In this document: positions 2,219 to 18,254 of the stretch, piece by piece | Numbering within the stretch: the stretch's first letter is position 1 | Layout: the number at the start of each line of letters is the position of its first letter | Assembly (NCBI GenBank): GCA_964488195.1 | Contig: CAZAUB010000001.1 | Span: 1 to 42,766 of the forward strand | Origin: an uncultured Methylobacter sp. | GTDB lineage: Bacteria > Pseudomonadota > Gammaproteobacteria > Methylococcales > Methylomonadaceae | Reading direction: 5' to 3' | DNA length: 42,766 nucleotides | Translations under genes and position numbers: made by a program | The notes under the pieces: model-generated | Told to the model about the DNA's origin: nothing | Databases searched by the model: none | Seen by the model: the letters and a program-made list of their open reading frames with translations, nothing else

Positions 2219-3235
2219 ATGAATCAAACCAATTCAAATTCAACTATTCTTGTCACTGGCGCCGACGGTTTCATCGGCTCGCACCTGACCGAAGCACTGG
2301 TGCGTCAGGGTTATAAAGTCCGTGCCTTCGCGCTCTACAATTCCTTCAACTCTTGGGGTTGGCTGGATCATTGCGCGCTCGATGTGAAGGGTCAGTTCGA
2401 GGTATTCGCTGGTGATATCCGTGATCCGCATGGGGTGAGGGAGGCGATGAAGGGCTGTGACGCAGTGCTGCATCTGGCCGCCCTCATCGCAATCCCATAC
2501 TCTTACCATTCGCCAGACACCTATGTCGATACCAATGTCAAAGGCACGCTGAATGTGCTGCAAGCGGCGCGTGAGCAGGGTGTTAAGAGGGTAGTTCATA
2601 CCTCGACCAGCGAGGTTTATGGCACAGCGCGATTTGTGCCGATAACTGAAGAACACCCCTTGCAGGGACAGTCTCCGTACTCGGCCACCAAGATCGCTGC
2701 GGATCAGTTGGCCTATTCCTTCTATGCCTCCTTCGGCCTGCCGGTAGTGATTGCACGGCCCTTCAACACCTATGGTCCGCGCCAGTCCGCTCGTGCCGTA
2801 ATCCCGACCATCATCACCCAGATCGCCAATGGCCGACGTCAGATCAAACTCGGGGCGGTATCGCCCACACGCGATTTCAACTTTGTGCAGGACACAGTAG
2901 CTGGTTTTATCGCCGCGCTGAACTCCGATAGGGGGCTGGGAGAAGTGGTCAACTTCGGCAGTAATTTCGAAATTTCCATCGGCGATACTGCCAAACTGAT
3001 TGCCGAAGCCATGAACACCGAGATTGAGATCATCACTGACGAAGCCCGCTTGCGCCCAGAAAACTCCGAGGTTGAACGTTTGTGGGCCGATAACGCCAAA
3101 GCTAAACAACTCTTCGGCTGGCAGCCCAGCTATGGCGATCGAGAGGGGTTTAAGCGCGGTCTGGCCGAAACTGCCGAATGGTTCGCACAACCGGATAACC
3201 TGCGCGGTTATAAAGCAGATATCTATAATGTCTAA
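2219..3235 (+). CDS. legB: NAD-dependent NDP-GlcNAc 4,6-dehydratase, LegB type
   Basis: TGADGFIGSHL, YNSFNSWGWLD, HLAALIAIPYSY, TSTSEVYG, QSPYSATK, RPFNTYGPRQSARAVIP and SEVERL are characteristic of LegB. Confidence 0.9.
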   Translation: MNQTNSNSTILVTGADGFIGSHLTEALVRQGYKVRAFALYNSFNSWGWLDHCALDVKGQFEVFAGDIRDPHGVREAMKGCDAVLHLAALIAIPYSYHSPDTYVDTNVKGTLNVLQAAREQGVKRVVHTSTSEVYGTARFVPITEEHPLQGQSPYSATKIAADQLAYSFYASFGLPVVIARPFNTYGPRQSARAVIPTIITQIANGRRQIKLGAVSPTRDFNFVQDTVAGFIAALNSDRGLGEVVNFGSNFEISIGDTAKLIAEAMNTEIEIITDEARLRPENSEVERLWADNAKAKQLFGWQPSYGDREGFKRGLAETAEWFAQPDNLRGYKADIYNV

Positions 3236-3941
3236 GCGCGCCATCATTCTTGCCGGTGGAAAAGGAACGCGCTTGCATCCCTACACCGTGGTGCTGCCGA
3301 AACCGTTAATGCCCATCGGCGAGTTTCCCATCCTGGAAGTGATCATTCGCCAGCTCGTGCAGCATGGTTTTGACCATGTCACCATGGCAGTCAACCATCA
3401 GGCCGAGATCATCAGAGCGTTTTTCCAGGACGGTGCGAAATGGGGTATCAAGATTGACTATTCGCTGGAAGACAAGCCACTTAGCACCATAGCGCCGTTG
3501 GGCCTGATTCACGATCTTCCAGAAAATTTCCTGGTCATGAATGGCGATATTCTGACCGATCTTAGCTATTCGGATCTCTTCGATGAGCATGTCAGCAAGA
3601 ACAATATCTTCACCATTTCCGCTTACCTGCGCGAACAGAAGATTGATTACGGTGTGCTTGAAATGGATACGAGTAGCCACTTGACTGGATTCAGGGAGAA
3701 ACCCAGTGCCGAATATTTGGTGAGCATGGGGGTGTATATGGCTAGTCGGCGCATCATAGGCTTTATTTCGGAAGGCAAGAGTTATGGTTTTGACAACTTG
3801 ATGCTGGATTTGCTTGCTGCGGGGAATCCTGCTGCTGTGCGGAAGTTTAGCGGCTACTGGTTGGATATAGGTAGGCCCGATGATTATATGCAAGCTATCG
3901 AAGAATTCGAGAGCATGCGAGCACGATTTGTTGGTGCATAA
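3228..3941 (+). CDS. Sugar-phosphate nucleotidyltransferase (PtmE/LegX-like, no CBS domains)
   Basis: Likely start MSKRAIILAGGKGTRL at 3228 overlapping the legB stop; PKPLMPIG, MNGDILTD, EKP and WLDIGRPDDY motifs. Confidence 0.88.
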   Translation: MSKRAIILAGGKGTRLHPYTVVLPKPLMPIGEFPILEVIIRQLVQHGFDHVTMAVNHQAEIIRAFFQDGAKWGIKIDYSLEDKPLSTIAPLGLIHDLPENFLVMNGDILTDLSYSDLFDEHVSKNNIFTISAYLREQKIDYGVLEMDTSSHLTGFREKPSAEYLVSMGVYMASRRIIGFISEGKSYGFDNLMLDLLAAGNPAAVRKFSGYWLDIGRPDDYMQAIEEFESMRARFVGA

Positions 3942-4804
3942 TGAAAAATGTACTTGTCACTGGTGCAGGAGGTTTTATAGGGCGGCGTTTGGTATGCGCA
4001 CTAAAAGATGCGGGGTACTTGGTGCATGAATTTGGCAGTGCGGGTGGGGATATTGCCGATCCAGCAACTGTTGAACGGTTTAATGAAGTTACAGTGGATT
4101 TTGTGTTTCATCTTGCCGGACGCACTTATGTGCCTGACGCTTGGTGTGAGCCAGGAGACTTTCAGCGAGTAAATGTAGCGGGCACCGTAAATGTGCTGGA
4201 ACTATGTCGTCGAAAAAAAATACCGCTAACATATGTCAGCGCTTATTTGTATGGAATTCCGGCCTCCTTACCTGTCAGGGAAACCGACAGGATTGATCCT
4301 AATAATCCATATGCATTGTCGAAATTTTTGGCTGAATCCCTATGCAGCTTCTACGCCGAGCATTTCGATGTTCCCGTAACCATCATCCGCCCGTTTAATA
4401 TTTACGGGCCGGGGCAAAAAGGGCACTTTTTGATCCCGGAAATCATCGCGCAAATAAAGGCTGGCCAGCCTATCCGCCTCAAAGATCTCACTCCCCGGCG
4501 TGATTATCTTTATCTAGACGATCTGGTCGATGCGCTGGTTCGTACGCTCAATCAGGAGGCGGGCTGTCATGTGTACAATATTGGTTACGGTAGCTCACTC
4601 AGCGTGGCTGAAATTGTCGAAACTATCCAATCTGTGGCGGGAACAGCATTACCTGTTGTGAGTGAAAATGCACCTAGGCACAATGAGATTTGTGATGTAT
4701 ATGCGGACATCAGCAAAGCCGCTCAAGAGTTACACTGGCATCCGCATTACAGTTTCAAAGAGGGCATCAAGAAAATGATTCTGAATGGAGATCACCTGAA
4801 ATGA
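3941..4804 (+). CDS. NAD-dependent epimerase/dehydratase family SDR, probable NDP-4-keto-6-deoxyhexose reductase (Rmd-like)
   Basis: TGAGGFIG, YALSK (YxxxK), RPFNIYGPGQ and RDYLY motifs; start overlaps the upstream stop (TAATG). Confidence 0.8.
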   Translation: MKNVLVTGAGGFIGRRLVCALKDAGYLVHEFGSAGGDIADPATVERFNEVTVDFVFHLAGRTYVPDAWCEPGDFQRVNVAGTVNVLELCRRKKIPLTYVSAYLYGIPASLPVRETDRIDPNNPYALSKFLAESLCSFYAEHFDVPVTIIRPFNIYGPGQKGHFLIPEIIAQIKAGQPIRLKDLTPRRDYLYLDDLVDALVRTLNQEAGCHVYNIGYGSSLSVAEIVETIQSVAGTALPVVSENAPRHNEICDVYADISKAAQELHWHPHYSFKEGIKKMILNGDHLK

Positions 4805-5874
4805 GTGAACGTTACGTACCCATTAACAAGGGCAATTACTCAATGGACACCTCAGAGAGGGAGGCGTTGTTTGAACAATATCGTGGAGAGGGTTGGGAAG
4901 CGCAATACCAAGATTACCGTAATAAATGGACTGAACTCGCCAAGACGCAGACGGTATCTGAGTACCCGCTTCTAGTGGATATAGAGCTCTCATCTGTTTG
5001 CAACCTCACCTGTTCGATGTGCTACACCATCACCGATGAATTTAAGCAGCACGTCAATGTCACCCGGATGGATTGGGAGCTGTACAAGAAGATTATTGAC
5101 GAAATCGACGGCAAGGTTCCGGCCATTCGCCTGAGCTTGCGCGGGGAGGCGACCCTGCACACAAAATTCATCGAGGCGATCAATTATGCAAAGGGTCACG
5201 GCATCAAGGAAGTTTCCTTGTTGACCCATGGCGGCAAGTTGACTCTGCCGTTTTTCCAGAAAATGGTGGAAGCGGGGGTAGACTGGATAACGATCTCGGT
5301 GGATGGCTTAGGCGAGACTTATGAGCGTGTGCGCAAGCCGCTGAAATTTGACGACCTGTTCAACAAAATAAAAGCCATCAAACAGTACAAGGAAGAACAC
5401 AAGCTGAAGCGCCCGGTCATTAAGGTGCAAGGCATCTGGCCTGCGATTGCTGAAAGCGGGCCCGATGCCTACTACAACACTTTCGCTCCCTATACCGATT
5501 TGGTGGCGTTCAATCCGCTGATTGACTACCTGTCCAACGATACCCATATCGAATACCTTGAAGAATTTACCTGTCCGCAACAATACCAGCGGCTGGTGAT
5601 AGGAGCCGACGGGCTGGTCATGAAGTGCTCAAACGATGAAGAAAATCGTGAAGTGATCGGCGACATCAAACAGGAAACCGTGCATCAGGTATGGCATGGC
5701 GAGAAGATGCAGGCGGTACGGAACATGCATCTGCAACCGCTTGGCTTCATGCAAAGCACGGTCTGCCGCAAGTGCTACCTACCGCGAGTGACCGAGGATG
5801 ATGTGGCTACGATTGGCGACAGAACATTCTTCGTAAAGAATTATATTCACCGTATTCAAGTAATAGGAAAGTAA
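4801..5874 (+). CDS. Radical SAM enzyme with SPASM/Twitch auxiliary Fe-S domain
   Basis: CNLTCSMC (CxxxCxxC), RGEATLH, ISVDG; C-terminal C-x17-C-x45-C-x2-C. Confidence 0.9.
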   Translation: MSERYVPINKGNYSMDTSEREALFEQYRGEGWEAQYQDYRNKWTELAKTQTVSEYPLLVDIELSSVCNLTCSMCYTITDEFKQHVNVTRMDWELYKKIIDEIDGKVPAIRLSLRGEATLHTKFIEAINYAKGHGIKEVSLLTHGGKLTLPFFQKMVEAGVDWITISVDGLGETYERVRKPLKFDDLFNKIKAIKQYKEEHKLKRPVIKVQGIWPAIAESGPDAYYNTFAPYTDLVAFNPLIDYLSNDTHIEYLEEFTCPQQYQRLVIGADGLVMKCSNDEENREVIGDIKQETVHQVWHGEKMQAVRNMHLQPLGFMQSTVCRKCYLPRVTEDDVATIGDRTFFVKNYIHRIQVIGK

Positions 5875-5877
5875 TCT

Positions 5878-6813
5878 ATGGGCACAGGCGACACATTGGA
5901 GCAGCTGCTCAACGTTTTTTGGCTTCGTCCGGAAACGGCACTTTGGCGCGAGATTGATATCAGAGCTATGAGTGCTTTTGAGATGCGCTCTCCGTCTCTG
6001 GACTTGGGATGTGGCGATGGCACATTTTCATTTATCCGGGCGGGCGGCGAATTCGACAGGAGTTTTGATGCTTTTCGTTCAGTATCACAGCTAGACCAGT
6101 TTTTCCAGAATGTCGATGTCTTCGATTCGTATGACGAGAGCCTGAGCTCGGCAGTAACAAAACCTCCGCGATATCAGATTGATGTTGGATTTGATCACAA
6201 AACAAATCTTCTCAAAAAGGCGGGACAGCTTGGTTTGTATGGAGCACTCAAGCAAGGGGATGCGAATCAACCATTGCCATTTCCAGATGCCTCGTTTAAT
6301 AGTATTTTTTCTAACATCGTATATTGGCTGGACTCGCCCCAGTTTGTGGTTTCAGAGATTTCCAGAATTTTGAAGCCTGGTGGGGTTGCTTGCCTGATGT
6401 TGCCGAATATTACATTTCCACAGTTCAGTTTTTATAACCAGCTATATGTGAAGGGTGGCGACGCTCGTTGGCAGTTTCTTGAGATGCTTGATCGGGGAAG
6501 ATTTGCCGACAATATTCGCCAAGCTAAATCTCAGGATGAATGGCAATCCATATTTGAACAAGCTGGGCTGCACATTGAACGCCACCATTCTCACCTGAGC
6601 AAACTCACCATCCAGGCTTGGGACATTGGTCTACGCCCCCTTTTCCCGGTTTTGCTTGAGATGTCGAATGAGTTGTCACCTGAAAAACTTATTTCTATAA
6701 AAGCCAAGTGGATACAGACAATGAGGGCTTTTCTTGAGCCACTGATAGAGATTGACAAGTCTCTTCCAGGCAATGAGCAACCGGCGTTCCACTGTTTCGA
6801 ATTGAGGAAATAA
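5878..6813 (+). CDS. Class I SAM-dependent methyltransferase
   Basis: LDLGCGDG motif I, GDANQPLPFPDASFNSI and SRILKPGG. Confidence 0.85.
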   Translation: MGTGDTLEQLLNVFWLRPETALWREIDIRAMSAFEMRSPSLDLGCGDGTFSFIRAGGEFDRSFDAFRSVSQLDQFFQNVDVFDSYDESLSSAVTKPPRYQIDVGFDHKTNLLKKAGQLGLYGALKQGDANQPLPFPDASFNSIFSNIVYWLDSPQFVVSEISRILKPGGVACLMLPNITFPQFSFYNQLYVKGGDARWQFLEMLDRGRFADNIRQAKSQDEWQSIFEQAGLHIERHHSHLSKLTIQAWDIGLRPLFPVLLEMSNELSPEKLISIKAKWIQTMRAFLEPLIEIDKSLPGNEQPAFHCFELRK

Positions 6814-6814
6814 T

Positions 6815-7831
6815 ATGTTCAAAAACTATCGAAGAGACCGTTGCTACATCATCGCCGAGATCGGCGGAAACTTCACCACATCAGACCAGGCCAAACGCCT
6901 GATTGATGCGGCGCATGGCTGCGGCGTGGATGCGGTCAAGTTGCAAACTTATCGCGCCGATACAATCACAAGCACCAAGGCTATCTTCGATATGGAGAAC
7001 ACAGGTGTGGTGTCGCAACATGACCTGTTCAGAAAATACGAAGTGGACGAAGCCTTGCATCACGATGTATTCAAGTATGCCGAATCCAAAGGCCTGGACT
7101 GGTTCTCCACCCCATCGCATTCGACCGATGTAGACTTGCTGGAAAAATGCGGTGTCGGCGCGCACAAGATCGGTTCGGATGATGCCGTCAACCTTCCCTA
7201 TCTTCGTTATGTCGCCCGCACTGGCAAGCCGGTGTTGCTATCGACCGGCATGTGTACGCTGGAAGAAGTGCGGGAATCGGTGGCTGCGATACTGGCGGAG
7301 GACAATGAGCAACTGATTTTGCTGCACGCCATCACCAGTTACCCGACCCATGCGGAGAACGTCAATCTGGCTGCCATGCAGACCTTGATGCAAGCTTTTC
7401 CGCAACTGGACATCGGTTATTCCGACCACACCCTGTCACCGATCGCCTGTTTGTGCGCGGTGGCCATGGGTGCGCGGGTGATCGAAAAGCATTTCACCTG
7501 GGACAAAAAAGCGGACGGCCCCGACCACGCGCTTTCCGCAGATCCGGCGGAAATGAAATGGCTGGTGGAGGCGGTGCGCAATTTTGAAATCATGCGCGGC
7601 TCCGGGATCAAACGTCCCGCCAACAGTGAGAAAACTACGCGGCGCAACAATCGCAAGAGCGTGGTGCTGAACCGCAATGTGAAAGCGGGAGAGCGCTTGA
7701 CCGAGCAGGATATCGCCGTCAAACGTCCCGGTTACGGTATTGGCCCAAAATACTTTGAGCAGGTCGTCGGGCGGACGGTAGCCGCAGACATGGAAAAAGA
7801 TGCCGTGCTCACCTGGAATGATCTGGCGTGA
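6815..7831 (+). CDS. neuB: Nonulosonic acid synthase (NeuB/SpsE family) with C-terminal SAF domain
   Basis: IIAEIG, DAVKLQ, FSTP, KIGS, LSTGM, SYP, GYSDH, EKHF, GPDH and SAF motif KRPGYGI. Confidence 0.9.
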   Translation: MFKNYRRDRCYIIAEIGGNFTTSDQAKRLIDAAHGCGVDAVKLQTYRADTITSTKAIFDMENTGVVSQHDLFRKYEVDEALHHDVFKYAESKGLDWFSTPSHSTDVDLLEKCGVGAHKIGSDDAVNLPYLRYVARTGKPVLLSTGMCTLEEVRESVAAILAEDNEQLILLHAITSYPTHAENVNLAAMQTLMQAFPQLDIGYSDHTLSPIACLCAVAMGARVIEKHFTWDKKADGPDHALSADPAEMKWLVEAVRNFEIMRGSGIKRPANSEKTTRRNNRKSVVLNRNVKAGERLTEQDIAVKRPGYGIGPKYFEQVVGRTVAADMEKDAVLTWNDLA

Positions 7832-8505
7832 GGGTTGGCGTCATCATACAAGCCAGAATAGGCTCGACCCGTTTGCCCGGCAAGGTATTGAAACCCATTG
7901 CGGGCAAGGCGCTGTTGGATCATGTGCTGGGTAGGTTGTCTCTGCTGGCATACCCGGTACAGATAGTGGTCGCCACCAGCGATATGCCGCAGGATGATGC
8001 TATCGCACAGCATTGCCTGTCCCGTGGTGTGGCGGTGTTCCGTGGCAACGAAACCGATGTGCTGGACAGATATTATCAGTGCGCTCGCGAGAACCGCTTT
8101 GCGCATGTCGTTCGACTGACGGCGGATAATCCGTTCACCGATATGGAAGAGTTACAGCGATTGATCGAGCAGCACTTGACCCAACGCAACGATTACAGTC
8201 ACTCTTTCGGTAGCATGCCGCTGGGCGTGGGGGCTGAAATTTTTACTTTCGCCGCGCTGGAGAAAAGCGCGCGGGAAGGTCATGCGCTCAATCACCGCGA
8301 GCACGTCAACGAATACATTCAGGAGAACCCGGATGTTTTCCAGATTGGTGTGCTGGAGGTGGTCGCAGCTAAACGATGCCCTGATTTGCGTTTGACGGTG
8401 GATACTGAAGATGACTATCAGTGTGTTTGTGCCATTGCCGAATACACGCCCAACCGATGGGTCGGTACCGAAGAGGCGATTAAATTTTGTTCGCATTCTG
8501 CATAG
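7828..8505 (+). CDS. Cytidylyltransferase (SpsF/NeuA-like CMP-nonulosonate synthetase)
   Basis: IIQARIGSTRLPGKVL, GNETDVLDRY, VRLTADNP, REHV and RLTVDTEDD motifs; GTG start overlaps the neuB stop. Confidence 0.88.
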   Translation: MRVGVIIQARIGSTRLPGKVLKPIAGKALLDHVLGRLSLLAYPVQIVVATSDMPQDDAIAQHCLSRGVAVFRGNETDVLDRYYQCARENRFAHVVRLTADNPFTDMEELQRLIEQHLTQRNDYSHSFGSMPLGVGAEIFTFAALEKSAREGHALNHREHVNEYIQENPDVFQIGVLEVVAAKRCPDLRLTVDTEDDYQCVCAIAEYTPNRWVGTEEAIKFCSHSA

Positions 8506-9440
8506 AAAGCTCCCATACGCGCGGTATGGGGCACTTTTACCGCGCGCTGAATCTGGCGGATGGACTGGCTGAAATGGGGCTGCCGTATACGTTTTATCTG
8601 AACGATCATGCCCCATCCCGGCAAATCCTCGCTGAGCGAGGCGTACCGCATCAGATAGTGAATCTGGAAGATTTCACCGGCAACTGGGAAGCGTCGCTGA
8701 TACAGCGGGACGGCATAACGTTGTGGCTGAATGACCGCCTCGATACTGATGTCCGTCATGCAGAAAAAATCAAAGCGGCAGACATTCCGCTGGTGACGTT
8801 CGATGACCGGGGAACGGGAGCGGCGTTGGCAGACTTGCATATTGCCGCACTGGCCTTCGATGCACAAGAACGGCTTGCGGGTGCCAAATTGTTGCGCGGT
8901 TCGGACTATCTGATACTGAACCCGCAAATCAGCGGCTACACGCGCCTGCGTAAGCAGCTTTCTAGTATACTGGTGACGTTGGGCGGTAGCGATACCTATG
9001 GTGTGACCGTCAAGGTGGTGCAGTTGCTGAAGGAAATGGGCCTGACGGTAACTGTCGTGGTGGGGCCAGGGTTCATGCATAGGGACATGCTGGATGAAGT
9101 ACTGACCGAGGATTTCACATTGAAGCGCGGCGTACCTTCCATGATCGAGGAATTCTATCACCACGATCTGGCGATCACTGGCGGCGGGATCACACCGTTC
9201 GAGGCCAACGCTTCCGGCCTGCCCTGCGTGGTGATAGCTAATGAATTGTTTGAAATGCCGGTCGCAATAGCCTTGCAGAAGCTGGGAGGCTCGCTTTTTG
9301 CCGGGCATCATGAATCACTGTCGCTCCCATTGTTCAGGACAGACTTGGCACTGGAGAAAATGAGTCAGGCCGGGATGCGCAATGTCAGCCTGCAAGGAAC
9401 ACGGCGCGTGATAGATGCGCTGCTGGAATTGGTCAAATGA
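8487..9440 (+). CDS. PseG/SpsG-like NDP-sugar hydrolase (GT-B fold)
   Basis: GMGHFYRALNLA, TFDD, LVTLGGSD, DLAITGGGITPFEA and GLPCVVI motifs; TTG start. Confidence 0.8.
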   Translation: MFAFCIESSHTRGMGHFYRALNLADGLAEMGLPYTFYLNDHAPSRQILAERGVPHQIVNLEDFTGNWEASLIQRDGITLWLNDRLDTDVRHAEKIKAADIPLVTFDDRGTGAALADLHIAALAFDAQERLAGAKLLRGSDYLILNPQISGYTRLRKQLSSILVTLGGSDTYGVTVKVVQLLKEMGLTVTVVVGPGFMHRDMLDEVLTEDFTLKRGVPSMIEEFYHHDLAITGGGITPFEANASGLPCVVIANELFEMPVAIALQKLGGSLFAGHHESLSLPLFRTDLALEKMSQAGMRNVSLQGTRRVIDALLELVK

Positions 9441-10141
9441 ACAAAAAAGTCGTCGTAATTCACCAGCCCGATTTTGCGCCTTACCTAGGTTTTTTTCATC
9501 GCTTCTTACATGCGGATTTTTATATCGCGCTGGACCATGTGCAATATGTGAACGGTAGCAGCCGCGCTTGGACGCACCGGGATAAAATCAAGACAGCGCA
9601 AGGCGAGAAGTGGCTAACGGTCAGCGTCAAAAAAGCTCCTCGTGATACCGCGATTAACCAGATCGAGCTTTCTACCGATACAGACTGGCGGCAGGATAAT
9701 TTGCGCTTGCTCGAACAGAACTACCGCAAAGCGCCCTGTTACAACGAACTGATGCCGGAGATCGAACGCTTATATGCCCGGCCATTCCACATGCTGCGCG
9801 ATTTCAACATGGCCTCAATCGAGATGCTGATGGACATGCTCGATGTGCGTATTCCCTGGGTGTGGTCGAGTAATCTTGATCCGGTTGGGACGAAAAACGA
9901 ATTGTTGGTGGACTTGTTGCAGAAAGTTTCTGCCACACATTATCTTTCTGGAGTGGGGGCGCGGGATTATTTTCAACCAGAACCCTTCGTCAAGAAAGGT
10001 ATCGAGGTGATCTGGCAAAACTTCACTCAGCCGGTTTATACTCAACAATTTGGTGAATTCCTGCCGTATTTGAGCGTACTGGATGTGTTGTTTAATCATG
10101 GTATAACGGCTTCGAGAGAAATACTGAGGAGAGGTGGATGA
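9437..10141 (+). CDS. WbqC-like family protein (putative aminoacyl/acyl transferase)
   Basis: IHQPDFAPYLGFF, LDHVQY, WLTVSV, YLSGVGARDY and LSVLDVLFN motifs. Confidence 0.88.
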   Translation: MNKKVVVIHQPDFAPYLGFFHRFLHADFYIALDHVQYVNGSSRAWTHRDKIKTAQGEKWLTVSVKKAPRDTAINQIELSTDTDWRQDNLRLLEQNYRKAPCYNELMPEIERLYARPFHMLRDFNMASIEMLMDMLDVRIPWVWSSNLDPVGTKNELLVDLLQKVSATHYLSGVGARDYFQPEPFVKKGIEVIWQNFTQPVYTQQFGEFLPYLSVLDVLFNHGITASREILRRGG

Positions 10142-10767
10142 ATATATTGGCTATCGGTGCACATTTCGATGACGTGGAACTTGGTTGCGGGGGAGCGTTG
10201 GCGCGCCACGCCCAGCAGGGAGATGACGTCTATGTATTTGTCGCTACGGTATCGGGTTTTTCTAATCAGTACAATCAAGCGGTGCGCACCAATGAATCTG
10301 CGCTCGAAGAGGCGCGTAATGCGATGGCGATTTTGGGGGTGAAAGAATTGCTGTGCGGCAATTTCAAGACGCTCGAAGTCGAGTTTGTGGATGTGCTGAA
10401 CATCGAGATTCTCAAGATTGTGCAGGAAAAGAAAATTGATCTGGTCTATACCCATTGGGCGGGAGACATCCACCACGACCATCAGGCTGTCGCCAAGGCT
10501 TCCCTGCACAGTTGCCGCCATGTGCAGAGAATGCTTATGTATCGCAGTAACTGGTATCACTCCACGATGGAATTCCGAGGGAATTTCTATTTTGATATCA
10601 CCGAATTCTGGCCGACCAAAGAGCAGGCGATTCGTGCACACGTCACCGAAGTGGATCGCACCGGTGAAAAATGGATCAGTTTTTTCAGGAACGAAGCAGA
10701 AAATGCCGGGCAAAAGATTGGTGTGCCTATGGCCGAGGTTTTTGAGGTGGTTAAGTTTCTTAACTAA
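10138..10767 (+). CDS. PIG-L/LmbE family N-deacetylase
   Basis: AIGAHFDDVELGCGG and DIHHDH metal-binding motifs; C-terminal AEVF. Confidence 0.88.
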   Translation: MNILAIGAHFDDVELGCGGALARHAQQGDDVYVFVATVSGFSNQYNQAVRTNESALEEARNAMAILGVKELLCGNFKTLEVEFVDVLNIEILKIVQEKKIDLVYTHWAGDIHHDHQAVAKASLHSCRHVQRMLMYRSNWYHSTMEFRGNFYFDITEFWPTKEQAIRAHVTEVDRTGEKWISFFRNEAENAGQKIGVPMAEVFEVVKFLN

Positions 10768-11966
10768 TGAAGACTTTTTTCCGCCTTATAGCAAAAATAA
10801 AGTTTGCAAATCCAAAAGCAAATAAAATTGCGATTCTCTATTCAGATGATTTCTGGCTTAGAAAATTAATTCTAAAAGATATGCTTGCAACAACTTTAAG
10901 TCTTTATCCAGAAGATTATAGAATTTATGTGACGCCTGTGTTGATAGGTCGTACATTGTTACGTTTAAGGTTGATTAATTGGCTTCAGATCCAAAAGAAT
11001 TTTTCCTTTAAAGAATTGTCCCGACAAATTTATGTTCAATATATTTTGGCATGTCTAGATCAAATAAAAGCTAAAGTTGTCCTGACAACAATTGATAATT
11101 CAAGTTTTTTTCATAATTTAAGTCGAATTGATAAAAAAAGGGTCTATTTCGCAATTCAGAATGGTACCAGAACGCTTGCTTGTGTGAGAGACTCGTTACC
11201 TTTACCCCCCCATCAGTTCTCTACCATTTTAATGAGCAATTTTTTTTGCTTTGGTCAAAGAGATATTGACCTGTTTGTTCGACATGGTCATAAAGTGGAT
11301 AATTATTTCCCAGTTGGGTCTTTGATTGGGAGTTATTATAAAAGCGTAGTTTCTGTTCCAAGTGCGAGACCGCAGTTTGATTTATGTCTGATTTCTCAGT
11401 GGCATGAACATTTCTTTAACGAGATAACTGGGGATGATTTTTCGGCGAATGCCTCCAGAAGGATTGGCGCGGGCATAAAGGGTTTGAATTCATTTGTGCT
11501 TCGTCTTTTGGAAGAAGCGGGCTTGAATTTGGTGGTTTGTCTGCGCAATGACCTTGATGACGCAGAGGTGTCTTTTTACAAAGATACTTTTGGGGATAGG
11601 GTGAGAATTGCTGAGTCTGACCGAAAGAATTTTTCTACTTACCGTGTTGCTGAGCAGAGTCGGCTTGTGATTGCGCTGAACTCAACTACACTTGCGGAAC
11701 TTTTTTCTTGGGGCCAGAAAGTGCTCTGGTGCAATGTGCCCAATGATGTCCATTATGAAATGGCAGAGGCCGACATTAGTTATTTTCATGGTGACGACTA
11801 CAATGCATTCAAGGTCCGCGCGTTGATGCTCCTGAAGATGCCTCAAGAAGATTATGAAATCCATACGCGTGATCGAGCCCGCTATATTAATAATTATGAC
11901 CCGACTACCCCCTCCTATGAAATTATTAGGTCGGCTGTAATCGCAAAGTTATCAAGCATAAATTAA
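10767..11966 (+). CDS. Surface carbohydrate biosynthesis protein, putative CMP-nonulosonate transferase
   Basis: IDNS, IQNG, FCFG, PVGS and ALNSTTLAE motifs resemble GT-B surface-polysaccharide transferases; AT-rich 5' part; sits at the end of module 1. Confidence 0.55.
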   Translation: MKTFFRLIAKIKFANPKANKIAILYSDDFWLRKLILKDMLATTLSLYPEDYRIYVTPVLIGRTLLRLRLINWLQIQKNFSFKELSRQIYVQYILACLDQIKAKVVLTTIDNSSFFHNLSRIDKKRVYFAIQNGTRTLACVRDSLPLPPHQFSTILMSNFFCFGQRDIDLFVRHGHKVDNYFPVGSLIGSYYKSVVSVPSARPQFDLCLISQWHEHFFNEITGDDFSANASRRIGAGIKGLNSFVLRLLEEAGLNLVVCLRNDLDDAEVSFYKDTFGDRVRIAESDRKNFSTYRVAEQSRLVIALNSTTLAELFSWGQKVLWCNVPNDVHYEMAEADISYFHGDDYNAFKVRALMLLKMPQEDYEIHTRDRARYINNYDPTTPSYEIIRSAVIAKLSSIN

Positions 11967-11986: not shown

Positions 11987-12985
11987 ATGTTTAACAATAA
12001 ATCTATATTAATCACCGGTGGCACTGGTTCCTTTGGTCACGCTTTTGTGCCAATGACGCTGGCCAAATACAACCCGCGTCGTCTAGTTATCTACTCGCGT
12101 GATGAAATGAAGCAGTGGGAAATGGCCAAGCTTTATGGTAACGACGAACGAGTACGTTTTTTTATCGGGGATGTACGCGATAAGGAACGACTCGCACGTG
12201 CGCTGAATGGTATCGAGTACGTTGTTCACGCGGCCGCCACCAAGATCGTACCGACGGCGGAATACAACCCATTCGAGTGCGTCAAGACTAATGTGATCGG
12301 TGCCATGAACCTTATTGATGCTTGCATCGACCAAGGGGTTAAACGTGTGGTGGCGCTATCGACCGACAAGGCCAGTAGCCCGGCGAATCTGTATGGCGCT
12401 ACCAAGCTTACCTCAGACAAGCTTTTTATTTCGGGCAACTCATACGCGGGCTTTGATGATACCCGTTTTGTCGTGGTGCGTTACGGTAATGTCATGGGCT
12501 CACGAGGTTCGGTGATCCCGTTCTTTTTGTCACTCGCCGACAAAGGGGTGTTACCGATTACCGATGAGCGCATGACCCGCTTCATGATCACCTTGGAGCA
12601 GGGCGTGGATCTCGTTTGGCATGCCTTCGAGGATATGGTCGGCGGCGAAATATATGTGAAGAAGATTCCTTCCATGAAGGTGACAGATATCGCCCGCGCA
12701 ATTGCGCCCGATGCGGGGCATGATATCGTCGGCATCCGCCCTGGTGAAAAGCTTCACGAGCAGATGATTGGGACAGAAGATGCGCTCTATACGTACGAAT
12801 ACTCCGAGCACTTTAAAATTCTTCCGGCCATTCACAATTGGAGCAACGACCCATATCGCATCAAGGATGGCAAGAAGGTGACCGAAGATTTCACTTACTG
12901 CTCGGACAACAACCCAGAATGGATGAGCATTGAAACGCTAAAAGCGTGGATCACGCAAAACCGTGAAAAAGTCGGCAAGATATGA
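11987..12985 (+). CDS. pseB: UDP-N-acetylglucosamine 4,6-dehydratase (inverting)
   Basis: ITGGTGSFG, YSRDEMKQ, FFIGDVRD, AEYNPFE, LSTDKA, YGATK, RYGNVMGSRGSVIP, MTRF and GIRPGEKLHE motifs. Confidence 0.95.
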   Translation: MFNNKSILITGGTGSFGHAFVPMTLAKYNPRRLVIYSRDEMKQWEMAKLYGNDERVRFFIGDVRDKERLARALNGIEYVVHAAATKIVPTAEYNPFECVKTNVIGAMNLIDACIDQGVKRVVALSTDKASSPANLYGATKLTSDKLFISGNSYAGFDDTRFVVVRYGNVMGSRGSVIPFFLSLADKGVLPITDERMTRFMITLEQGVDLVWHAFEDMVGGEIYVKKIPSMKVTDIARAIAPDAGHDIVGIRPGEKLHEQMIGTEDALYTYEYSEHFKILPAIHNWSNDPYRIKDGKKVTEDFTYCSDNNPEWMSIETLKAWITQNREKVGKI

Positions 12986-14151
12986 CGGCAATGATTCCTT
13001 ACGGTCGCCAAGATATTTCCGATGTGGACATACAAGCGGTTGTGGAAGTCCTGCGTTCCGATTACCTAACACAAGGCCCGGCAGTTCCCGCTTTTGAAAA
13101 AAGCCTCGCTGACTATTGCGGTACGCAACATGCTGTTGCCGTGAACAGCGCCACGAGTGCACTGCACGTTGCCTGTTTGGTGCTAGGCGTAGGGCCAAAC
13201 GATGTGGTTTGGACTACCCCGATTACTTTTGTGGCCAGTGCAAATTGTGCCCTCTATTGTGGTGCGGGGATCGATTTCGTGGACATTGATCTGCGTACCT
13301 ACAACATGAGTGTTGAGCGTCTGGCAGAAAAACTGGGACATGCAGAAAAGATCGGCAACCTACCCAAAGTCGTGATTCCCGTGCATCTATGCGGACAGCC
13401 CTGCGATATAACAGGTATTCACCTACTCAGTCAACAATACGGCTTCAAGATTATCGAGGATGCATCACATGCGATTGGTGGCAAATATCGCGGCGAAGCG
13501 ATCGGCAACTGTCGTTACAGTGACATCACTGTATTTAGCTTCCATCCGGTCAAGATCATCACCACGGGTGAAGGGGGCATGGCCATGACTAACGATGCAC
13601 AGTTGGCGAAGCGCATGCAGTTACTGCGCAGTCACGGCATTACCCGTGACGTGAACGAGATGACTCATGCGCTGGATGGGCCTTGGTACTACCAACAAAC
13701 TGATCTTGGCTACAACTACCGTATGACCGACTTGCAGGCTGCATTGGGCCTGAGCCAAATGAAGCGATTGGATGAATTTGTCGCTAAGCGTCACGCCATC
13801 GCCAAGCGATATGATCAGCTTTTGGCTAATCTGCCGGTGATTTTGCCATGGCAGCATGCGGACAGCTATTCCGGTTTGCATCTGTATGTGATTCGTTTGA
13901 ATCTCGGAGAGATTGGCAAAGCACACCGTCAAGTGTTTGAAGCATTGCGTGCAGCAGGCATCGGCGTGAACTTGCACTACATTCCGGTGTATCGGCAGCC
14001 GTACTACGAAGGATTAGGTTTTCAGGTTGGACATTGCCCGGAGGCGGAGCGATATTATACGGAAGCAATTAGCTTACCAATGTATCCCGGATTAACCGAA
14101 GAACAACAGCTTCAAGTGGTGTGCGCATTGGATATGGCAATCCAAGGATGA
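12982..14151 (+). CDS. pseC: UDP-4-amino-4,6-dideoxy-N-acetyl-beta-L-altrosamine transaminase
   Basis: IPYGRQ, LTQGP, NSATSALH, EDASHA, FSFHPVKIITTGEGG, LRSHGI and NYRMTD motifs. Confidence 0.95.
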   Translation: MTAMIPYGRQDISDVDIQAVVEVLRSDYLTQGPAVPAFEKSLADYCGTQHAVAVNSATSALHVACLVLGVGPNDVVWTTPITFVASANCALYCGAGIDFVDIDLRTYNMSVERLAEKLGHAEKIGNLPKVVIPVHLCGQPCDITGIHLLSQQYGFKIIEDASHAIGGKYRGEAIGNCRYSDITVFSFHPVKIITTGEGGMAMTNDAQLAKRMQLLRSHGITRDVNEMTHALDGPWYYQQTDLGYNYRMTDLQAALGLSQMKRLDEFVAKRHAIAKRYDQLLANLPVILPWQHADSYSGLHLYVIRLNLGEIGKAHRQVFEALRAAGIGVNLHYIPVYRQPYYEGLGFQVGHCPEAERYYTEAISLPMYPGLTEEQQLQVVCALDMAIQG

Positions 14152-15017
14152 GATTGGCCCTCGGTGCAGTCCAGTTCGGCATGAACTACGGAATCGCTAA
14201 CCAAGATGGACAAGTTTCTGTTGATGAAGCCAAAGCCATCATTGAGTTTTCACGCGCAAGCGGCATTGACACGCTTGATACCGCGATTGCCTACGGCGAC
14301 AGCGAGAAGCGGTTGGGAGAGGTTGGCATTCAAGATTGGCAGGTTGTGTCAAAGCTGCCAGCCATTCCAGAAAATTGCCGTGACATCACGCAATGGGTTA
14401 CGGATACTGTTAACGAATCCATGCAACGGTTGAAAGTCAAAAATTTATATGGCCTGTTGTTGCACCGACCGCAACAACTTTTAGAGCAAGAGAGCGACCA
14501 GCTCTATCGTGCCTTGCAGCAGCTAAAATACGAAGGCTTAGTACAAAAAATCGGTGTCTCGATTTATGCCCCTTCAGAACTGGATGCACTTTGTAGTCGC
14601 TTTAAGTTCGACCTTGTCCAAGCACCCTTTAATGTTATAGATCGCCGTCTGATTGAAACAGGCTGGTTGACCCGTTTGGCGGAGCAGGGCACGGAATTGC
14701 ATGTGCGTTCGGTTTTTTTGCAGGGTCTGCTTTTAATGAGACCAAGTGATAGGCCTCAAAAATTTGCCCGATGGGACGTCTTTTGGTCAAAATGGGATGA
14801 ATGGCTTGCGCACAATGGGTTGACGCCATTGCAAGCCTGTCTCTGTTACGCCTTGTCATTTCCGCAAATCGGAAAAGTCATCGTCGGTGTCGATAGCTTG
14901 CCGCAGTTGAAAGAGATACTTATGGCTATGGCAGGCCCATCACCGAAAATCCCAGATGGACTAAGTATCAGCGACATTAATTTAGTGAATCCAGCAAATT
15001 GGGCGGCGCTCACCTAA
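14148..15017 (+). CDS. Aldo/keto reductase family oxidoreductase
   Basis: Start MRLALGAVQFG at 14148 (ATGA overlap with pseC); LDTAIAYG, VSKL, LLLH, KIGVSIY and RSVFLQG motifs. Confidence 0.88.
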   Translation: MRLALGAVQFGMNYGIANQDGQVSVDEAKAIIEFSRASGIDTLDTAIAYGDSEKRLGEVGIQDWQVVSKLPAIPENCRDITQWVTDTVNESMQRLKVKNLYGLLLHRPQQLLEQESDQLYRALQQLKYEGLVQKIGVSIYAPSELDALCSRFKFDLVQAPFNVIDRRLIETGWLTRLAEQGTELHVRSVFLQGLLLMRPSDRPQKFARWDVFWSKWDEWLAHNGLTPLQACLCYALSFPQIGKVIVGVDSLPQLKEILMAMAGPSPKIPDGLSISDINLVNPANWAALT

Positions 15018-15065
15018 TCCATAGTCTCTATAAGCAAATCTAGCAAGTAAAACAAGGATACGAAA

Positions 15066-16067
15066 ATGTCTATCGAAATCATCGCCGAACTAGCTCAGGG
15101 GTTTGAAGGTCGCTCAGAGCAGGCTCGCCTGCTGCTGAAAGCGGCGGCGGCGGCAGGAGCTGATGCAGCTAAATACCAACTTGTGTATGCAGATGAATTG
15201 GCTACTCCAGACTATAAGTACTACGAACTTTTTCGTTCTCTTGAAATGACCGATGATGTCTGGAAAGGGTTGGCGACATATGCAGCGGAGTTGGGTATTC
15301 AGTTACATGTAGATATTTTTGGGACGCGCAGCCTACAATTGGCTGAGCGAATTGGTGTGGCGGCCGTGAAGCTTCATGGCACCGATATTGCCAATCTTGG
15401 CCTATTAAACGCGGTTGCAAACAGTTCGATAAAAAGAGTGCTGTTGGGCGCGGGAGGTGCTTTTTACAGTGAACTTCAGCAAGCCATAGATATTCTTTCA
15501 AGCAAAGAGGCGATTGTTCTTCTTGGCTTTCAGGGCTATCCAACCCCTAATGAAACTAACCAAATAGATCGTGTCCGCTTATTGGTGGAGCGCATTGAAC
15601 GCACACATACGAATGTGTCTATCGGGTTTGCTGATCATGCGCCGCCGGAAAGTCCCTTGCGTTATGCTTTAGCAGCAACGGCTATAGGTGCAGGTGCAAA
15701 GGTGCTTGAAAAGCACCTAACCCTGGGACAGGTCATGAAGCTGGAAGACCACGAGTCAGCTCTGAATCCCGATGAATTTTTAGAGTTCACTCAGACCATT
15801 CGGGATTGCGCCCAAGCTTTGGGAGGTGCCGCAGACATCGAGGACTTCGGAATGTCCGAGGCTGAGCATGCTTATCGCAAGATGATTCGTCGGCATGTGG
15901 TATCAAGCCGAGATATTGAAAAGGGTTCAAAAATTGCCCCAGCCGATCTGGTTCTCAAGCGCACATCGTCCGAGCAAGTCATTACAGACTTGGCCTCGGT
16001 TTATGAGAAAACGCTTAAGCGCGAGATTCAACAAAACACACCAATTTTACCTGCCGACATTGATTAA
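15066..16067 (+). CDS. Divergent NeuB-family protein with SAF domain and degenerate PEP-binding motifs
   Basis: IIAE, GADAAKYQ, YPT, GFADH, LEKHLTL, DHESAL and RRHVV are retained; STP, KIxS, STGM and SDH are replaced by VDI, KLHG, GAGG and ADH. Confidence 0.85.
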   Translation: MSIEIIAELAQGFEGRSEQARLLLKAAAAAGADAAKYQLVYADELATPDYKYYELFRSLEMTDDVWKGLATYAAELGIQLHVDIFGTRSLQLAERIGVAAVKLHGTDIANLGLLNAVANSSIKRVLLGAGGAFYSELQQAIDILSSKEAIVLLGFQGYPTPNETNQIDRVRLLVERIERTHTNVSIGFADHAPPESPLRYALAATAIGAGAKVLEKHLTLGQVMKLEDHESALNPDEFLEFTQTIRDCAQALGGAADIEDFGMSEAEHAYRKMIRRHVVSSRDIEKGSKIAPADLVLKRTSSEQVITDLASVYEKTLKREIQQNTPILPADID

Positions 16068-16079
16068 AGTGATTCCATA

Positions 16080-16841
16080 ATGAAAAGACGTCTTGTAGCT
16101 GCCATCGCTTGTCGTAACCAGGGGGCGCGCCTTTACGGCAAGCCGATTCAGAATCTGGATGTAGAAAATGGTGCGCGAATAATTGATAACATTGTTGAAT
16201 GCTTGAGAACAATTGATTGCATTGATGAGATAGTTCTTGGCATTTCAGAGGGTATCGAAAATGATGTGTTTAAAATCATCGCGGAAGAGAAAGGTCTTCG
16301 TTACGTTGTTGGTGACCAAATTGATGTGTTATCGCGGCTTATTAAATGCGGGCAGCTCGCAGGTGCAACCGACATTTTTCGTGTAACCAGTGAATCCCCT
16401 TTTCTTTATTTTGAACCCGTTGAAGAGTTATGGCGTCTTCACCAAGAAGAAAAGGCGGATGCGATTTTCATGGATGATGTTATTGACGGATGCGGATTTG
16501 AAATCATTTCTTTAAAAGCTCTGGAAGAGTCGCACGCAAAGGGCGATAGAAAACATCGCTCCGAACTTTGTACGCTGTATATTCGGGAGCATCATCAGGA
16601 ATTCAAGATCATCAAGCCGGAACCGCCGATTGAACTGGTTCGCAAAGATTTGAGGTTGACAGTAGACAACCCGGAAGATTTGGCAGTATGTCGAATTGTG
16701 TTCGGCGCATTCAAGGGGAAAGCCCCGAGAATTCCGGTTCCTGAAATCGTCAAATATCTAGATGCGAATCCAACGCTGATCGAGCTGATTTCACCTTTTA
16801 CCGAAACCGGGTATGCAACGATGTATCGTTGGGGTGAGTAA
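16080..16841 (+). CDS. Cytidylyltransferase (SpsF-like; likely fills the PseF role)
   Basis: IACRNQGARLYGKP, GDQIDVLSR, RVTSESPF and LRLTVDNPEDL motifs. Confidence 0.83.
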   Translation: MKRRLVAAIACRNQGARLYGKPIQNLDVENGARIIDNIVECLRTIDCIDEIVLGISEGIENDVFKIIAEEKGLRYVVGDQIDVLSRLIKCGQLAGATDIFRVTSESPFLYFEPVEELWRLHQEEKADAIFMDDVIDGCGFEIISLKALEESHAKGDRKHRSELCTLYIREHHQEFKIIKPEPPIELVRKDLRLTVDNPEDLAVCRIVFGAFKGKAPRIPVPEIVKYLDANPTLIELISPFTETGYATMYRWGE

Positions 16842-16867
16842 TAATTCGCAGCAGTCAAAAACATTTC

Positions 16868-18208
16868 ATGGATAAAATGATGAACAAGATAACAAACTAC
16901 CAGAAATCCAAAGAATTTTCAGCGAGAGTTCATGACCTGATACCTGGCGGCGCACATACTTATTCCAAGGGTGATGATCAGTTTCCGCTCAATGCTCCGG
17001 CAGCAATTACCCATGGTAAGGGAGCTCACGTGTGGGATCTTGATTGCAACGAGTTTATTGATTGCAGCATGGGGTTAACATCGGTTTGTATCGGTCACGG
17101 ATATGAGCCTGTCGCACAAGCTGTTTGTGAGGCGGCGTTTGGGGGTACCAATTTCCAGCGACCAGCCGCAATCGAGTTGGAGGCTGCCAAGATATTCCTC
17201 GAAACCGTTCAGTCCGGGGACATGGTGAAGTTTGCTAAAAACGGCTCCACAGTTACGACTGCTGCAGTCAAGCTGGCGCGCGCTTATACCGGACGTAATC
17301 GGGTTGCTATCGCACGCGAACACAATTTCTTTAGTTACGATGACTGGTTCATTGTCACCACGCCCTGTGATCGAGGCATTCCATCCAGAGTGCGCGAGAT
17401 GACTGCGGTGTTTAGTTACAACAACTATGAATCGGTCGAAGCATTGCTTGCCGACAACGACCATGACATCGCCTGCTTGATAATGGAGCCGGTGAAATTC
17501 GAGCCACCCAAGGATGATTTCCTGCATAAGGTTGCGGCTCTGTGCAAGGATCGCGGTGTGCTCTTGATTCTTGATGAGATGATTTCTGGCTTCAAATGGA
17601 GTTTGCAAGGGGCGCACAACTATTACGGGGTCAAACCCGACATGGCGACCTGGGGCAAGGGTATTGCTAATGGGTTTTCGGCCTGTGCACTGACCGGGCG
17701 TGCCGATATCATGGAATTAGGCGGTATCCGGCGTGAAGGGGATGACAAGCTATTTCTGATCTCAACGACTCATGGTGCCGAGACCACAGGTCTTGCTGCC
17801 ATGATTGCCACCATCAGGGAATTCAAACAGCACAATATGATTGAGAGCAACTGGGCGAGGGGCGAGGCCCTAAAGCAGCGTCTTGAACAGATTGTGCACA
17901 ATCATGGGTTGGAAAATTCGTTGCAACTGCTTGGTTATCCCTGTCTATTCGTGTTGGTATGCCGTAATTCCGCAGGTGTGCCGGATGATGCGTACCGAAC
18001 CTTGATGATGCAGGAAATGATTGCGCGGGGCGTATTGTTTCAGGGGATGTTTTATCCTACTTGGTCGCACCAGCAACCGGAGATGGATCATCTTGCCACG
18101 GCCTTTGATGAGTCATGTGCCATATACCGTAACGCTATTGATATCGGTTCTACGGATAACCTGTTGATCGGTCGGCCTGCCAAGCCGGTTTTTCGTAAGA
18201 TAATTTAG
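16868..18208 (+). CDS. Class III PLP aminotransferase (glutamate-1-semialdehyde aminomutase/KdnA-like)
   Basis: IPGGAHTYSKGDDQFP, GKGAHVWD, KFAKNGS, LILDEMISGF and TWGKGIANG (catalytic Lys). Confidence 0.88.
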   Translation: MDKMMNKITNYQKSKEFSARVHDLIPGGAHTYSKGDDQFPLNAPAAITHGKGAHVWDLDCNEFIDCSMGLTSVCIGHGYEPVAQAVCEAAFGGTNFQRPAAIELEAAKIFLETVQSGDMVKFAKNGSTVTTAAVKLARAYTGRNRVAIAREHNFFSYDDWFIVTTPCDRGIPSRVREMTAVFSYNNYESVEALLADNDHDIACLIMEPVKFEPPKDDFLHKVAALCKDRGVLLILDEMISGFKWSLQGAHNYYGVKPDMATWGKGIANGFSACALTGRADIMELGGIRREGDDKLFLISTTHGAETTGLAAMIATIREFKQHNMIESNWARGEALKQRLEQIVHNHGLENSLQLLGYPCLFVLVCRNSAGVPDDAYRTLMMQEMIARGVLFQGMFYPTWSHQQPEMDHLATAFDESCAIYRNAIDIGSTDNLLIGRPAKPVFRKII

Positions 18209-18254
18209 CTTCAAATATCAAGGAACAAAGGGTTAAGGTTTTGGCGTACCTAAT

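Follow-up and report, generated by a model that had tools for sequence, protein, structure and literature searches.

A candidate nonulosonic acid cassette uniting LegB, an unusual NeuB and a PIG-L/WbqC pair in an uncultured Methylobacter

Gene content and conservation of the block

The window analysed here, a stretch of 42,766 nucleotides (nt) from an uncultured Methylobacter sp. (assembly GCA_964488195.1, contig CAZAUB010000001.1), carries at 2219..11966 a block of eleven genes that opens with the dehydratase LegB and includes a NeuB-family nonulosonate synthase. As the first-pass annotation of this DNA had it, the genes are tightly coupled: all open reading frames (ORFs) are present (11/11), on the + strand, and the distance from one gene to the next runs from -19 to +3 nt (in order -8, -1, -4, +3, +1, -4, -19, -4, -4 and -1). 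Its claim that the module holds no LegC, no acetyltransferase and no LegG/NeuC also stands, as family profile calls place no aminotransferase, acetyltransferase or 2-epimerase within 2219-11966. We propose, with a probability of roughly 0.55, that the block is a cassette which would make a cytidine monophosphate (CMP)-activated 5-amino-3,5,9-trideoxy-nonulosonic acid, with a hydroxyl at C7 and with N5 aminoacylated or free, for a surface polysaccharide. The setting is a surface-polysaccharide locus: an ABC transporter and an exopolysaccharide-associated MarR regulator precede the block, and a full pseudaminic acid (Pse)-type module and glycosyltransferases follow it; this module, complete with PseC and a PseG-PseH fusion, begins only 20 nt after the block, which should be kept in mind for every statement of absence.

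A NeuB-seeded scan of GTDB yielded 39 loci, to which all presence counts refer, in Pseudomonadota, Nitrospirota, Chlorobiota, Bacillota, Spirochaetota, Thermodesulfobacteriota and other phyla. Of the eleven-gene unit described in the first-pass annotation, eight to nine genes are conserved, namely those of LegB, the nucleotidyltransferase, the short-chain dehydrogenase/reductase (SDR), in part the radical S-adenosylmethionine (SAM) enzyme, NeuB, SpsF, the PseG-like protein, WbqC and PIG-L, the methyltransferase and the last gene being accessory (Table 1). Methylation hence drops out of the core, and re-acylation, at first treated as an extra, seems to belong to it in the form of a PIG-L/WbqC acyl swap.

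Table 1. Genes of the block, with the family or structural evidence for each and the number of the 39 loci that hold it.
Gene product	Position	Strand	Evidence	Loci
LegB, nucleoside diphosphate (NDP)-N-acetylglucosamine (GlcNAc) 4,6-dehydratase, core	2219..3235	+	TIGR04180 535.5, above cut-off 475	33/39
Sugar-1-phosphate nucleotidyltransferase, likely guanylyl, core	3228..3941	+	PF00483, without CBS domains	34/39
Extended SDR, Rmd-like, predicted 4-keto reductase, core	3941..4804	+	Rmd 6x3b, E 2e-33	36/39
Radical SAM enzyme, four-Cys auxiliary domain (SPASM), BtrN-like, near-core	4801..5874	+	BtrN 4m7t	34/39
Class I SAM methyltransferase, accessory	5878..6813	+	PF08241	10/39
Nonulosonate synthase, separate NeuB clade, core	6815..7831	+	NeuB and SAF domains; tree, Asp122	
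SpsF-type cytidylyltransferase, predicted CMP-nonulosonate synthetase, core	7828..8505	+	PF02348 / CTP_transf_3	36/39
PseG-like GT-B protein, predicted non-epimerising NDP-sugar hydrolase, core	8487..9440	+	TIGR03590 79 bits	35/39
WbqC, BshC-like predicted amino-acid ligase, core	9437..10141	+	PF08889 and AlphaFold model	36/39
PIG-L/LmbE de-N-acetylase, BshB-like, core	10138..10767	+	PF02585, TIGR04001 74 bits	34/39
LA_1612-like protein, possible nonulosonate transferase, accessory, low GC	10767..11966	+	TIGR04441 53 bits	5/39

Some gene absences are contig ends (L005, L010, L011, L026 and L029), and the genuine exceptions include L006 and L027, which lack LegB and the nucleotidyltransferase, together with L008, L021, L031/L032 and two Azospirillum loci. 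A longer form of the nucleotidyltransferase, of about 350 amino acids (aa), occurs in L033, L034 and L038. None of 200 genomes from the family to which the window belongs has the cassette NeuB (best match 42%), hence the cassette is patchy; two plasmid records show NeuB at about 72%, the next matches falling to about 40%, and the Neorhizobium plasmid L043 carries the whole core.

For the last gene, described at first as a transferase, there is the LA_1612-like match of Table 1, which lies below the cut-off of 150; a transferase role is putative, and the GC content at third codon positions (GC3) is 0.36. P0121, a homologue of its protein, groups with LA_1612 clusters (score 0.98), and there is one GT-B-type lead besides. 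The adjoining second nonulosonate module (11987-20842) comprises PseB, PseC, an aldo-keto reductase, a divergent NeuB, an SpsF-like protein, a class III aminotransferase, the PseG-PseH fusion and PseI. Its divergent NeuB (15066-16067) sits on a very long branch and brings the NeuB homologues of this single locus to three; near copies of it (69%) and of the SpsF (81%) are held by L020. The reductase and aminotransferase of this module might yield an 8-amino derivative. A B12-binding radical SAM protein lies at 38718-40235, amid the downstream glycosyltransferases.

A proposed route to the sugar: dehydratase, predicted reductase and the Leg enzymes not found

The LegB of the window is 90% identical to the LegB within a complete legionaminic acid (Leg) cluster, L109, and scores 80.6 on the PseB model (cut-off 407.75), true PseB, PseC and PseG-H sitting in the next module. 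Among 29 other LegB loci drawn from a 400-genome sample of the phylum, 24 have LegC or NeuC adjoining, 2 are cassettes and 3 show other arrangements. In a FastTree of 64 rows the cassette LegBs interleave with LegC-linked LegBs, supported branches forcing at least six label changes, and L021 has a dehydratase that differs from LegB and is 83% identical to one in the Leg cluster of genome G005. Taken together, the interleaving and the likeness of the L021 dehydratase make NDP-GlcNAc the likely substrate. The best NCBIfam matches of the nucleotidyltransferase are guanylyltransferases, all below cut-off, and the choice of guanosine diphosphate (GDP) as nucleotide is adopted from the described LegB (PMC13317340, PMC7439481).

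Since the nearest solved relative of the SDR is Rmd and the top match of the nucleotidyltransferase is a mannose-1-phosphate guanylyltransferase model, below its cut-off, one may ask whether the front end works instead on GDP-mannose by Gmd/Rmd logic, giving D-rhamnose and then 9-deoxy-Kdn, for which neither an epimerase nor amine enzymes would be required. Locus L006 fits such a scheme, having no LegB and an SDR preceded by two SDRs which we take to resemble gmd and fcl. The identity of LegB to that of a Leg cluster and its interleaving with such LegBs speak against it, as does the core itself, whose deacetylase and amine ligase would be left without a substrate. We regard this scheme as barely plausible, and a GDP-mannose front end was largely rejected on the two LegB results and the L021 dehydratase. 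Elsewhere in the genome, contig C11 (13004-15580) holds a second LegB, above cut-off, with a nucleotidyltransferase and an SDR only 24% identical to that of the window, among polysaccharide genes and with no NeuB on the contig; trios similar to it occur in L107 and L108.

After Rmd, the next solved relative of the SDR is a 4-epimerase (E 1e-27). Its triad is kept, with Ser100 in 37/38 and Tyr124 and Lys128 in 38/38 homologues. Tyr102 is invariant, at a position which presumably bears the acid in dehydratases and a Cys in 3,5-epimerases. A 4-keto reductase is thus predicted, with a hydride face that is not readable from the sequence, and the protein may instead be a 4-epimerase. The first-pass reading that the 4-keto intermediate is reduced rather than aminated has the absence of LegC and the proximity to Rmd on its side, and remains a prediction as regards the chemistry. 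The SDR gene has a lower GC3 (0.44) and groups with L019/L021, not with the loci nearest by NeuB, which suggests a single-gene replacement inside the cassette. That it represents a different stereochemical subtype was rejected, the active-site segments being of the same family.

Between the PseG-like protein and the PseG domain of the window's own fusion the identity is 27%, and the N-terminal GxGH histidine, His16, is kept across 38 homologues. Because NeuB needs a free aldose and the core offers no other candidate, it is taken as the hydrolase. The retained histidine is in keeping with the non-epimerising release of PseG type put forward at first, an activity that is predicted.

The genome comprises 563 contigs. 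At its completeness of 74%, no LegC was found, the best score (242.9, cut-off 420) falling on the adjacent PseC, and no LegG/NeuC, the sole PF02350 match being weak (31.5 bits, C206); tblastn with the NeuC of the true Leg cluster of G005 gave no match either. As to the N-acetyltransferase, a NeuD-like gene on C7 scores 157.5, below the cut-off of 160.8 (the C. jejuni LegH did not serve as query). It belongs to a separate aminotransferase/WbqC cluster (C7 2360-10149, 15598-16722), in which an AMP-ligase-like ORF and an SDR, both named by eye, the NeuD-like acetyltransferase and a second WbqC, 26% identical to that of the window, are followed further along by a DegT aminotransferase.

As the genome of the window is incomplete, the 39 carrier genomes, whose completeness is not stated, were examined for LegC and NeuC as well. 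LegC is above cut-off in 3/39 and NeuC appears in 6/39, that of L018 adjoining a second synthase of its own; on this point the first-pass reading is supported, the two genes being rare in the carriers and not found in the incomplete genome of the window. No DegT-type aminotransferase is present in 10 of the 26 loci with full flanks, and those of 17 loci fall into seven groups at 50% identity, at varying positions. A recurring add-on block of a second SpsF-like protein, an oxidoreductase-like ORF and a DegT aminotransferase follows PIG-L in L021 (14922-17934), L030, L031 and L032; this aminotransferase forms one orthologous group with L012.

These counts bear on the very improbable case in which the product is ordinary Leg or a known isomer, the work of LegC, LegH and LegG being done by the neighbouring PseC/PseH or by genes that lie elsewhere or in the part of the genome that was not assembled. 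The incomplete genome, the PseC and PseG-PseH just downstream and the second LegB on C11 leave room for it, and for B. subtilis the synthesis of Leg by SpsM/C/D/G/E/F has been reported (PMC7439481). The low counts in carriers are contrary to it, neither LegC nor NeuC being found in the Herbaspirillum, Rhizobium and Ferrovibrio isolates (G012, G015 and G016); the C11 LegB is accompanied by a nucleotidyltransferase and an SDR, not by LegC, and the NeuB falls outside the LegI-type clade, as described below.

The synthase pocket, the PIG-L/WbqC pair and the radical SAM enzyme

The NeuB of the window scores 345.5 on the NeuB_NnaB model (cut-off 399.65) and 281 on the PseI model (cut-off 340), whereas the synthase of the G005 Leg cluster reaches 518 on the former. 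In a quick tree of 74 rows the 41 cassette NeuBs form one branch with 99% SH-like approximate likelihood ratio test (SH-aLRT) support. A more careful tree, built from 37 selected rows, supports their clade at 100/99 and sets it apart from PseI and from the LegI-type synthases, a label set by gene neighbours only; the comparison with LegI, PseI and NeuB envisaged at the outset thus gives a distinct clade, and the variant motifs reported then (GGNF for GxNH, STPS for STPF) are present. In our own numbering against the Neisseria NeuB, His30, Phe112, Gly133, Glu134 and Phe288 are replaced by Phe, Ser, Asp, Asp and Asn. Phe112 and Phe288 we take to line the N-acetyl pocket. The Gly133-type position has been tied to C2 specificity, being Gly in neuraminic acid and Leg enzymes and Phe in Pse enzymes (PMC7371886), and the cassette NeuBs have Asp there in 41/41 cases (Asp122 in the window).

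The same Asp site occurs in a second NeuB lineage, that of L104, which is 36% identical and lies on a PseB/PseC/PseG backbone. The best 80 of its 435 metagenome relatives were taken (L131-L210), and all have the Asp (80/80); neighbours were counted only where each flank reaches 3 kb or more, which leaves 33 loci, the other 47 being dropped. WbqC is found in 31/33, PIG-L in 30/33 and both in 28, against 0/23 and 4/23, respectively, in control synthase loci (L109, L041 and 21 others). A sequence rule may be offered from these two lineages and 23 controls, namely that an Asp-type C2 site is accompanied by both PIG-L and WbqC. The L104 lineage is a candidate for an N5-aminoacyl Pse pathway. L104 itself (G458:C8:97000-116999) adjoins flagellin-like genes and a hexapeptide acetyltransferase.

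The PIG-L protein conserves its metal ligands His9, Asp12, His112, Asp114 and His115, and its best solved relatives are diacetylchitobiose deacetylases. The C2 amine it would free is the sole amine available, because the core has no aminotransferase. The AlphaFold model of WbqC, with a predicted local distance difference test (pLDDT) of 95, matches best BshC (4wbd; Z 14.3, root-mean-square deviation 3.1, 221/234 aligned) and next class I tRNA synthetases. From this fold, and from its pairing with PIG-L, WbqC is predicted to be a ligase that joins an amino acid to the amino sugar. Glycine as the N5 amino acid is a guess, which comes from the annotation of WbqC as a possible glycine transferase.

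It could also be that the backbone is as proposed and the N-acetyl group is kept, with PIG-L and WbqC acting on another sugar or after CMP activation. WbqC does occur in the unrelated aminotransferase cluster of C7, and PIG-L adjoins ordinary PseI or LegI-type genes in the 4/23 control loci given above; yet the pair stays with NeuB in loci of shuffled gene order (L028, L033, L034, L038), and the NeuB pocket has changed to polar and acidic residues, which makes this arrangement quite improbable.

For the radical SAM enzyme, a model with pLDDT 91 has BtrN as its best Foldseek match (E 1.5e-11), then DesII, SuiB and BlsE, the epimerase EpeE also being among the fold matches. Cys 67/71/74/258/276/322/325 (CxxxCxxC plus four auxiliary) are conserved, and there is no further Cys in the protein. 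Radical epimerases of the Cys type use an extra Cys as hydrogen donor, and a dehydrogenase or lyase is favoured over such an epimerase as no Cys is spare. The gene is missing from five Lachnospiraceae loci, the genomes of which yielded no orthologue of it either. The enzyme might nevertheless alter the backbone, either by epimerising C2 in place of LegG (giving a 9-deoxy-neuraminic type) or by a reaction like those of BlsE and DesII, a dehydration or a deamination (which would lead to a further deoxy sugar), and its frequency, its usual place between SDR and NeuB and the presence of DesII, BlsE and EpeE among its matches are what one would cite for this. We consider it unlikely, as the Lachnospiraceae loci keep the remaining cassette, to their contig limits, in metagenome-assembled genomes that also have no NeuC, the mechanism of the Cys-type epimerases calls for a donor Cys, and deoxygenation would require a second reductase, absent from the core. 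Like the methyltransferase, the radical SAM enzyme probably serves for optional tailoring.

Proposed pathway and comparison with known systems

The preferred scheme, in which all reactions, their order and the product are predictions, was assembled from gene content, conservation, folds, motifs and phylogeny. The nucleotidyltransferase would form GDP-GlcN(Ac), from which LegB would give GDP-4-keto-6-deoxy-GlcNAc, and the Rmd-like SDR would turn the C4 keto group into a hydroxyl in place of the LegC amination. PIG-L would strip the N-acetyl group and WbqC would ligate an amino acid, in the manner of BshB/BshC and probably ahead of the condensation. The PseG-like enzyme would then free the sugar with its C2 configuration unchanged, the Asp-site NeuB would condense it with phosphoenolpyruvate, and the SpsF-type enzyme would attach CMP.

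On stereochemical grounds, C5 would be as in Pse, because C2 of GlcNAc is retained, and C8 would be D-configured as in Leg, because LegB is non-inverting. A quinovosamine (QuiN) precursor would lead to D-glycero-D-gulo/-ido and a fucosamine (FucN) precursor to D-glycero-L-manno/-gluco products, C7 being set by the reductase face. The unusual C5 configuration announced in the first-pass annotation is accordingly given up: what would be new is the pairing of the C5 of Pse with a Leg-type C8 and a 7-hydroxyl. Its claim of a new nonulosonate pathway fares better as to the genes, since the set is not described in any title or abstract found in a search that reached few subscription journals and missed much of the literature on carbohydrate structures; as to the product, a 7-hydroxy trideoxy nonulosonate is already known in fusaminic acid (PMC13014188). 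It is possible, with the odds against it, that the cassette is a widespread route to a nonulosonate skeleton new to the searched literature (D-glycero-D-gulo/ido, 7-hydroxy, 9-deoxy, N5 aminoacyl), built with a transplanted pair of BshB/BshC type and a NeuB with an acidic C2 pocket.

Genome annotation names the cassette synthases neuraminate or legionaminate synthases, and a whole class of surface sugars is thus possibly misassigned. Should the proposed pathway be true, it would be a further route to bacterial nonulosonic acids, whose zwitterionic or aminoacylated sugar could alter surface charge and phage or host recognition; WbqC (PF08889) would gain a testable function with a defined substrate and could stand as a small model of how BshC works, a reaction that is itself unsolved. 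Cultured carriers are at hand in Rhizobium phaseoli JHI366, Neorhizobium galegae HAMBI 1141, Herbaspirillum sp. 3R11 and Ferrovibrio xuzhouensis.

A number of observations weigh against the proposed pathway. No biochemistry or glycan structure from any carrier was found, and the genome of the window is, as said, only partly complete. LegC-like matches at E <= 1e-90 occur in 13/39 carrier genomes, and L022 has a LegC orthologue (54%) at 5.3 kb from NeuB. The SDR is absent in L027, L031 and L032, L031 having a different SDR, 26% identical to that of the window, and the two Azospirillum loci have no SpsF, PseG-like protein or PIG-L nearby. The PseG-like protein lies below the TIGR03590 cut-off of 153.55, a sequence search with it against solved structures gave nothing below E 0.05, and it could be a glycosyltransferase. 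The identity of WbqC to BshC is 10%, and a Foldseek search of its model against the PDB gave nothing at E <= 0.001 (best E 0.068); in the bacillithiol pathway deacetylation by BshB is followed by the addition of cysteine by BshC, a BshC reaction not reconstituted as of the review consulted (PMC5790435). One of the six patterns used in the scan for the L104 lineage contained the Asp motif, and the two Asp-site lineages may be of one origin, perhaps sisters (67/70), in which case the link to WbqC is possibly a single event. Finally, the radical SAM gene is more frequent than expected for a dispensable step.

With the CMP-Leg pathway of C. jejuni (PtmE, LegB, LegC, LegH, LegG, LegI and LegF; PMC3438082, PMC13317340) the cassette shares a true LegB, a nucleotidyltransferase, a NeuB-family synthase and a CMP-transferase. 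It differs in having the Rmd-like SDR and the PseG-like protein instead of LegC, LegH and LegG, a synthase of a separate clade, and WbqC, PIG-L and the radical SAM enzyme as extras. The Pse pathway (PseB, C, H, G, I, F) resembles it in the PseG-like non-epimerising release and the same predicted C5; in contrast, the cassette has LegB and not the C5-inverting PseB, no aminotransferase or acetyltransferase, and a synthase below the PseI cut-off with Asp for Phe.

In the sps pathway of B. subtilis we take SpsG to be PseG-like and SpsC to be an aminotransferase. This pathway has an SpsF-type activator, as the cassette does, and requires SpsG; it departs from the cassette in SpsC, the putative acetyltransferase SpsD, uridine diphosphate (UDP)-sugars and a product reported as Leg (PMC7439481). 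The Leptospira pathway is unlike the cassette in retaining aminotransferases. The CMP-nonulosonate cluster of Ca. Kuenenia stuttgartiensis is likewise Leg-related and has a deacetylase, its CMP-sugar showing a free amine; it differs in legC, legG and a formyltransferase, and the main text mentions no WbqC or radical SAM enzyme (bioRxiv 10.64898/2026.04.20.719630).

A precedent for the skeleton is fusaminic acid, a trideoxy nonulosonate with a 7-hydroxyl in the L series (PMC13014188) and the single reported trideoxy instance as of 2020 (PMC7371886). The 3,5,9-trideoxy skeleton and the 7-hydroxyl are common to both, implying reduction and not amination at hexose C4; fusaminic acid is of the L-altro series, whereas the precursor predicted here is of the D series, from LegB, with N5 aminoacylated or free. 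For the N5 group the nearest parallels are BshB/BshC of bacillithiol and MshB/MshC of mycothiol synthesis, in which a PIG-L deacetylase and a ligase resembling class I synthetases likewise act on a GlcNAc-derived amine; relative to BshB/BshC, the pair described here sits in a nonulosonate pathway, and its WbqC, at 234 aa against 540, is much the smaller ligase.

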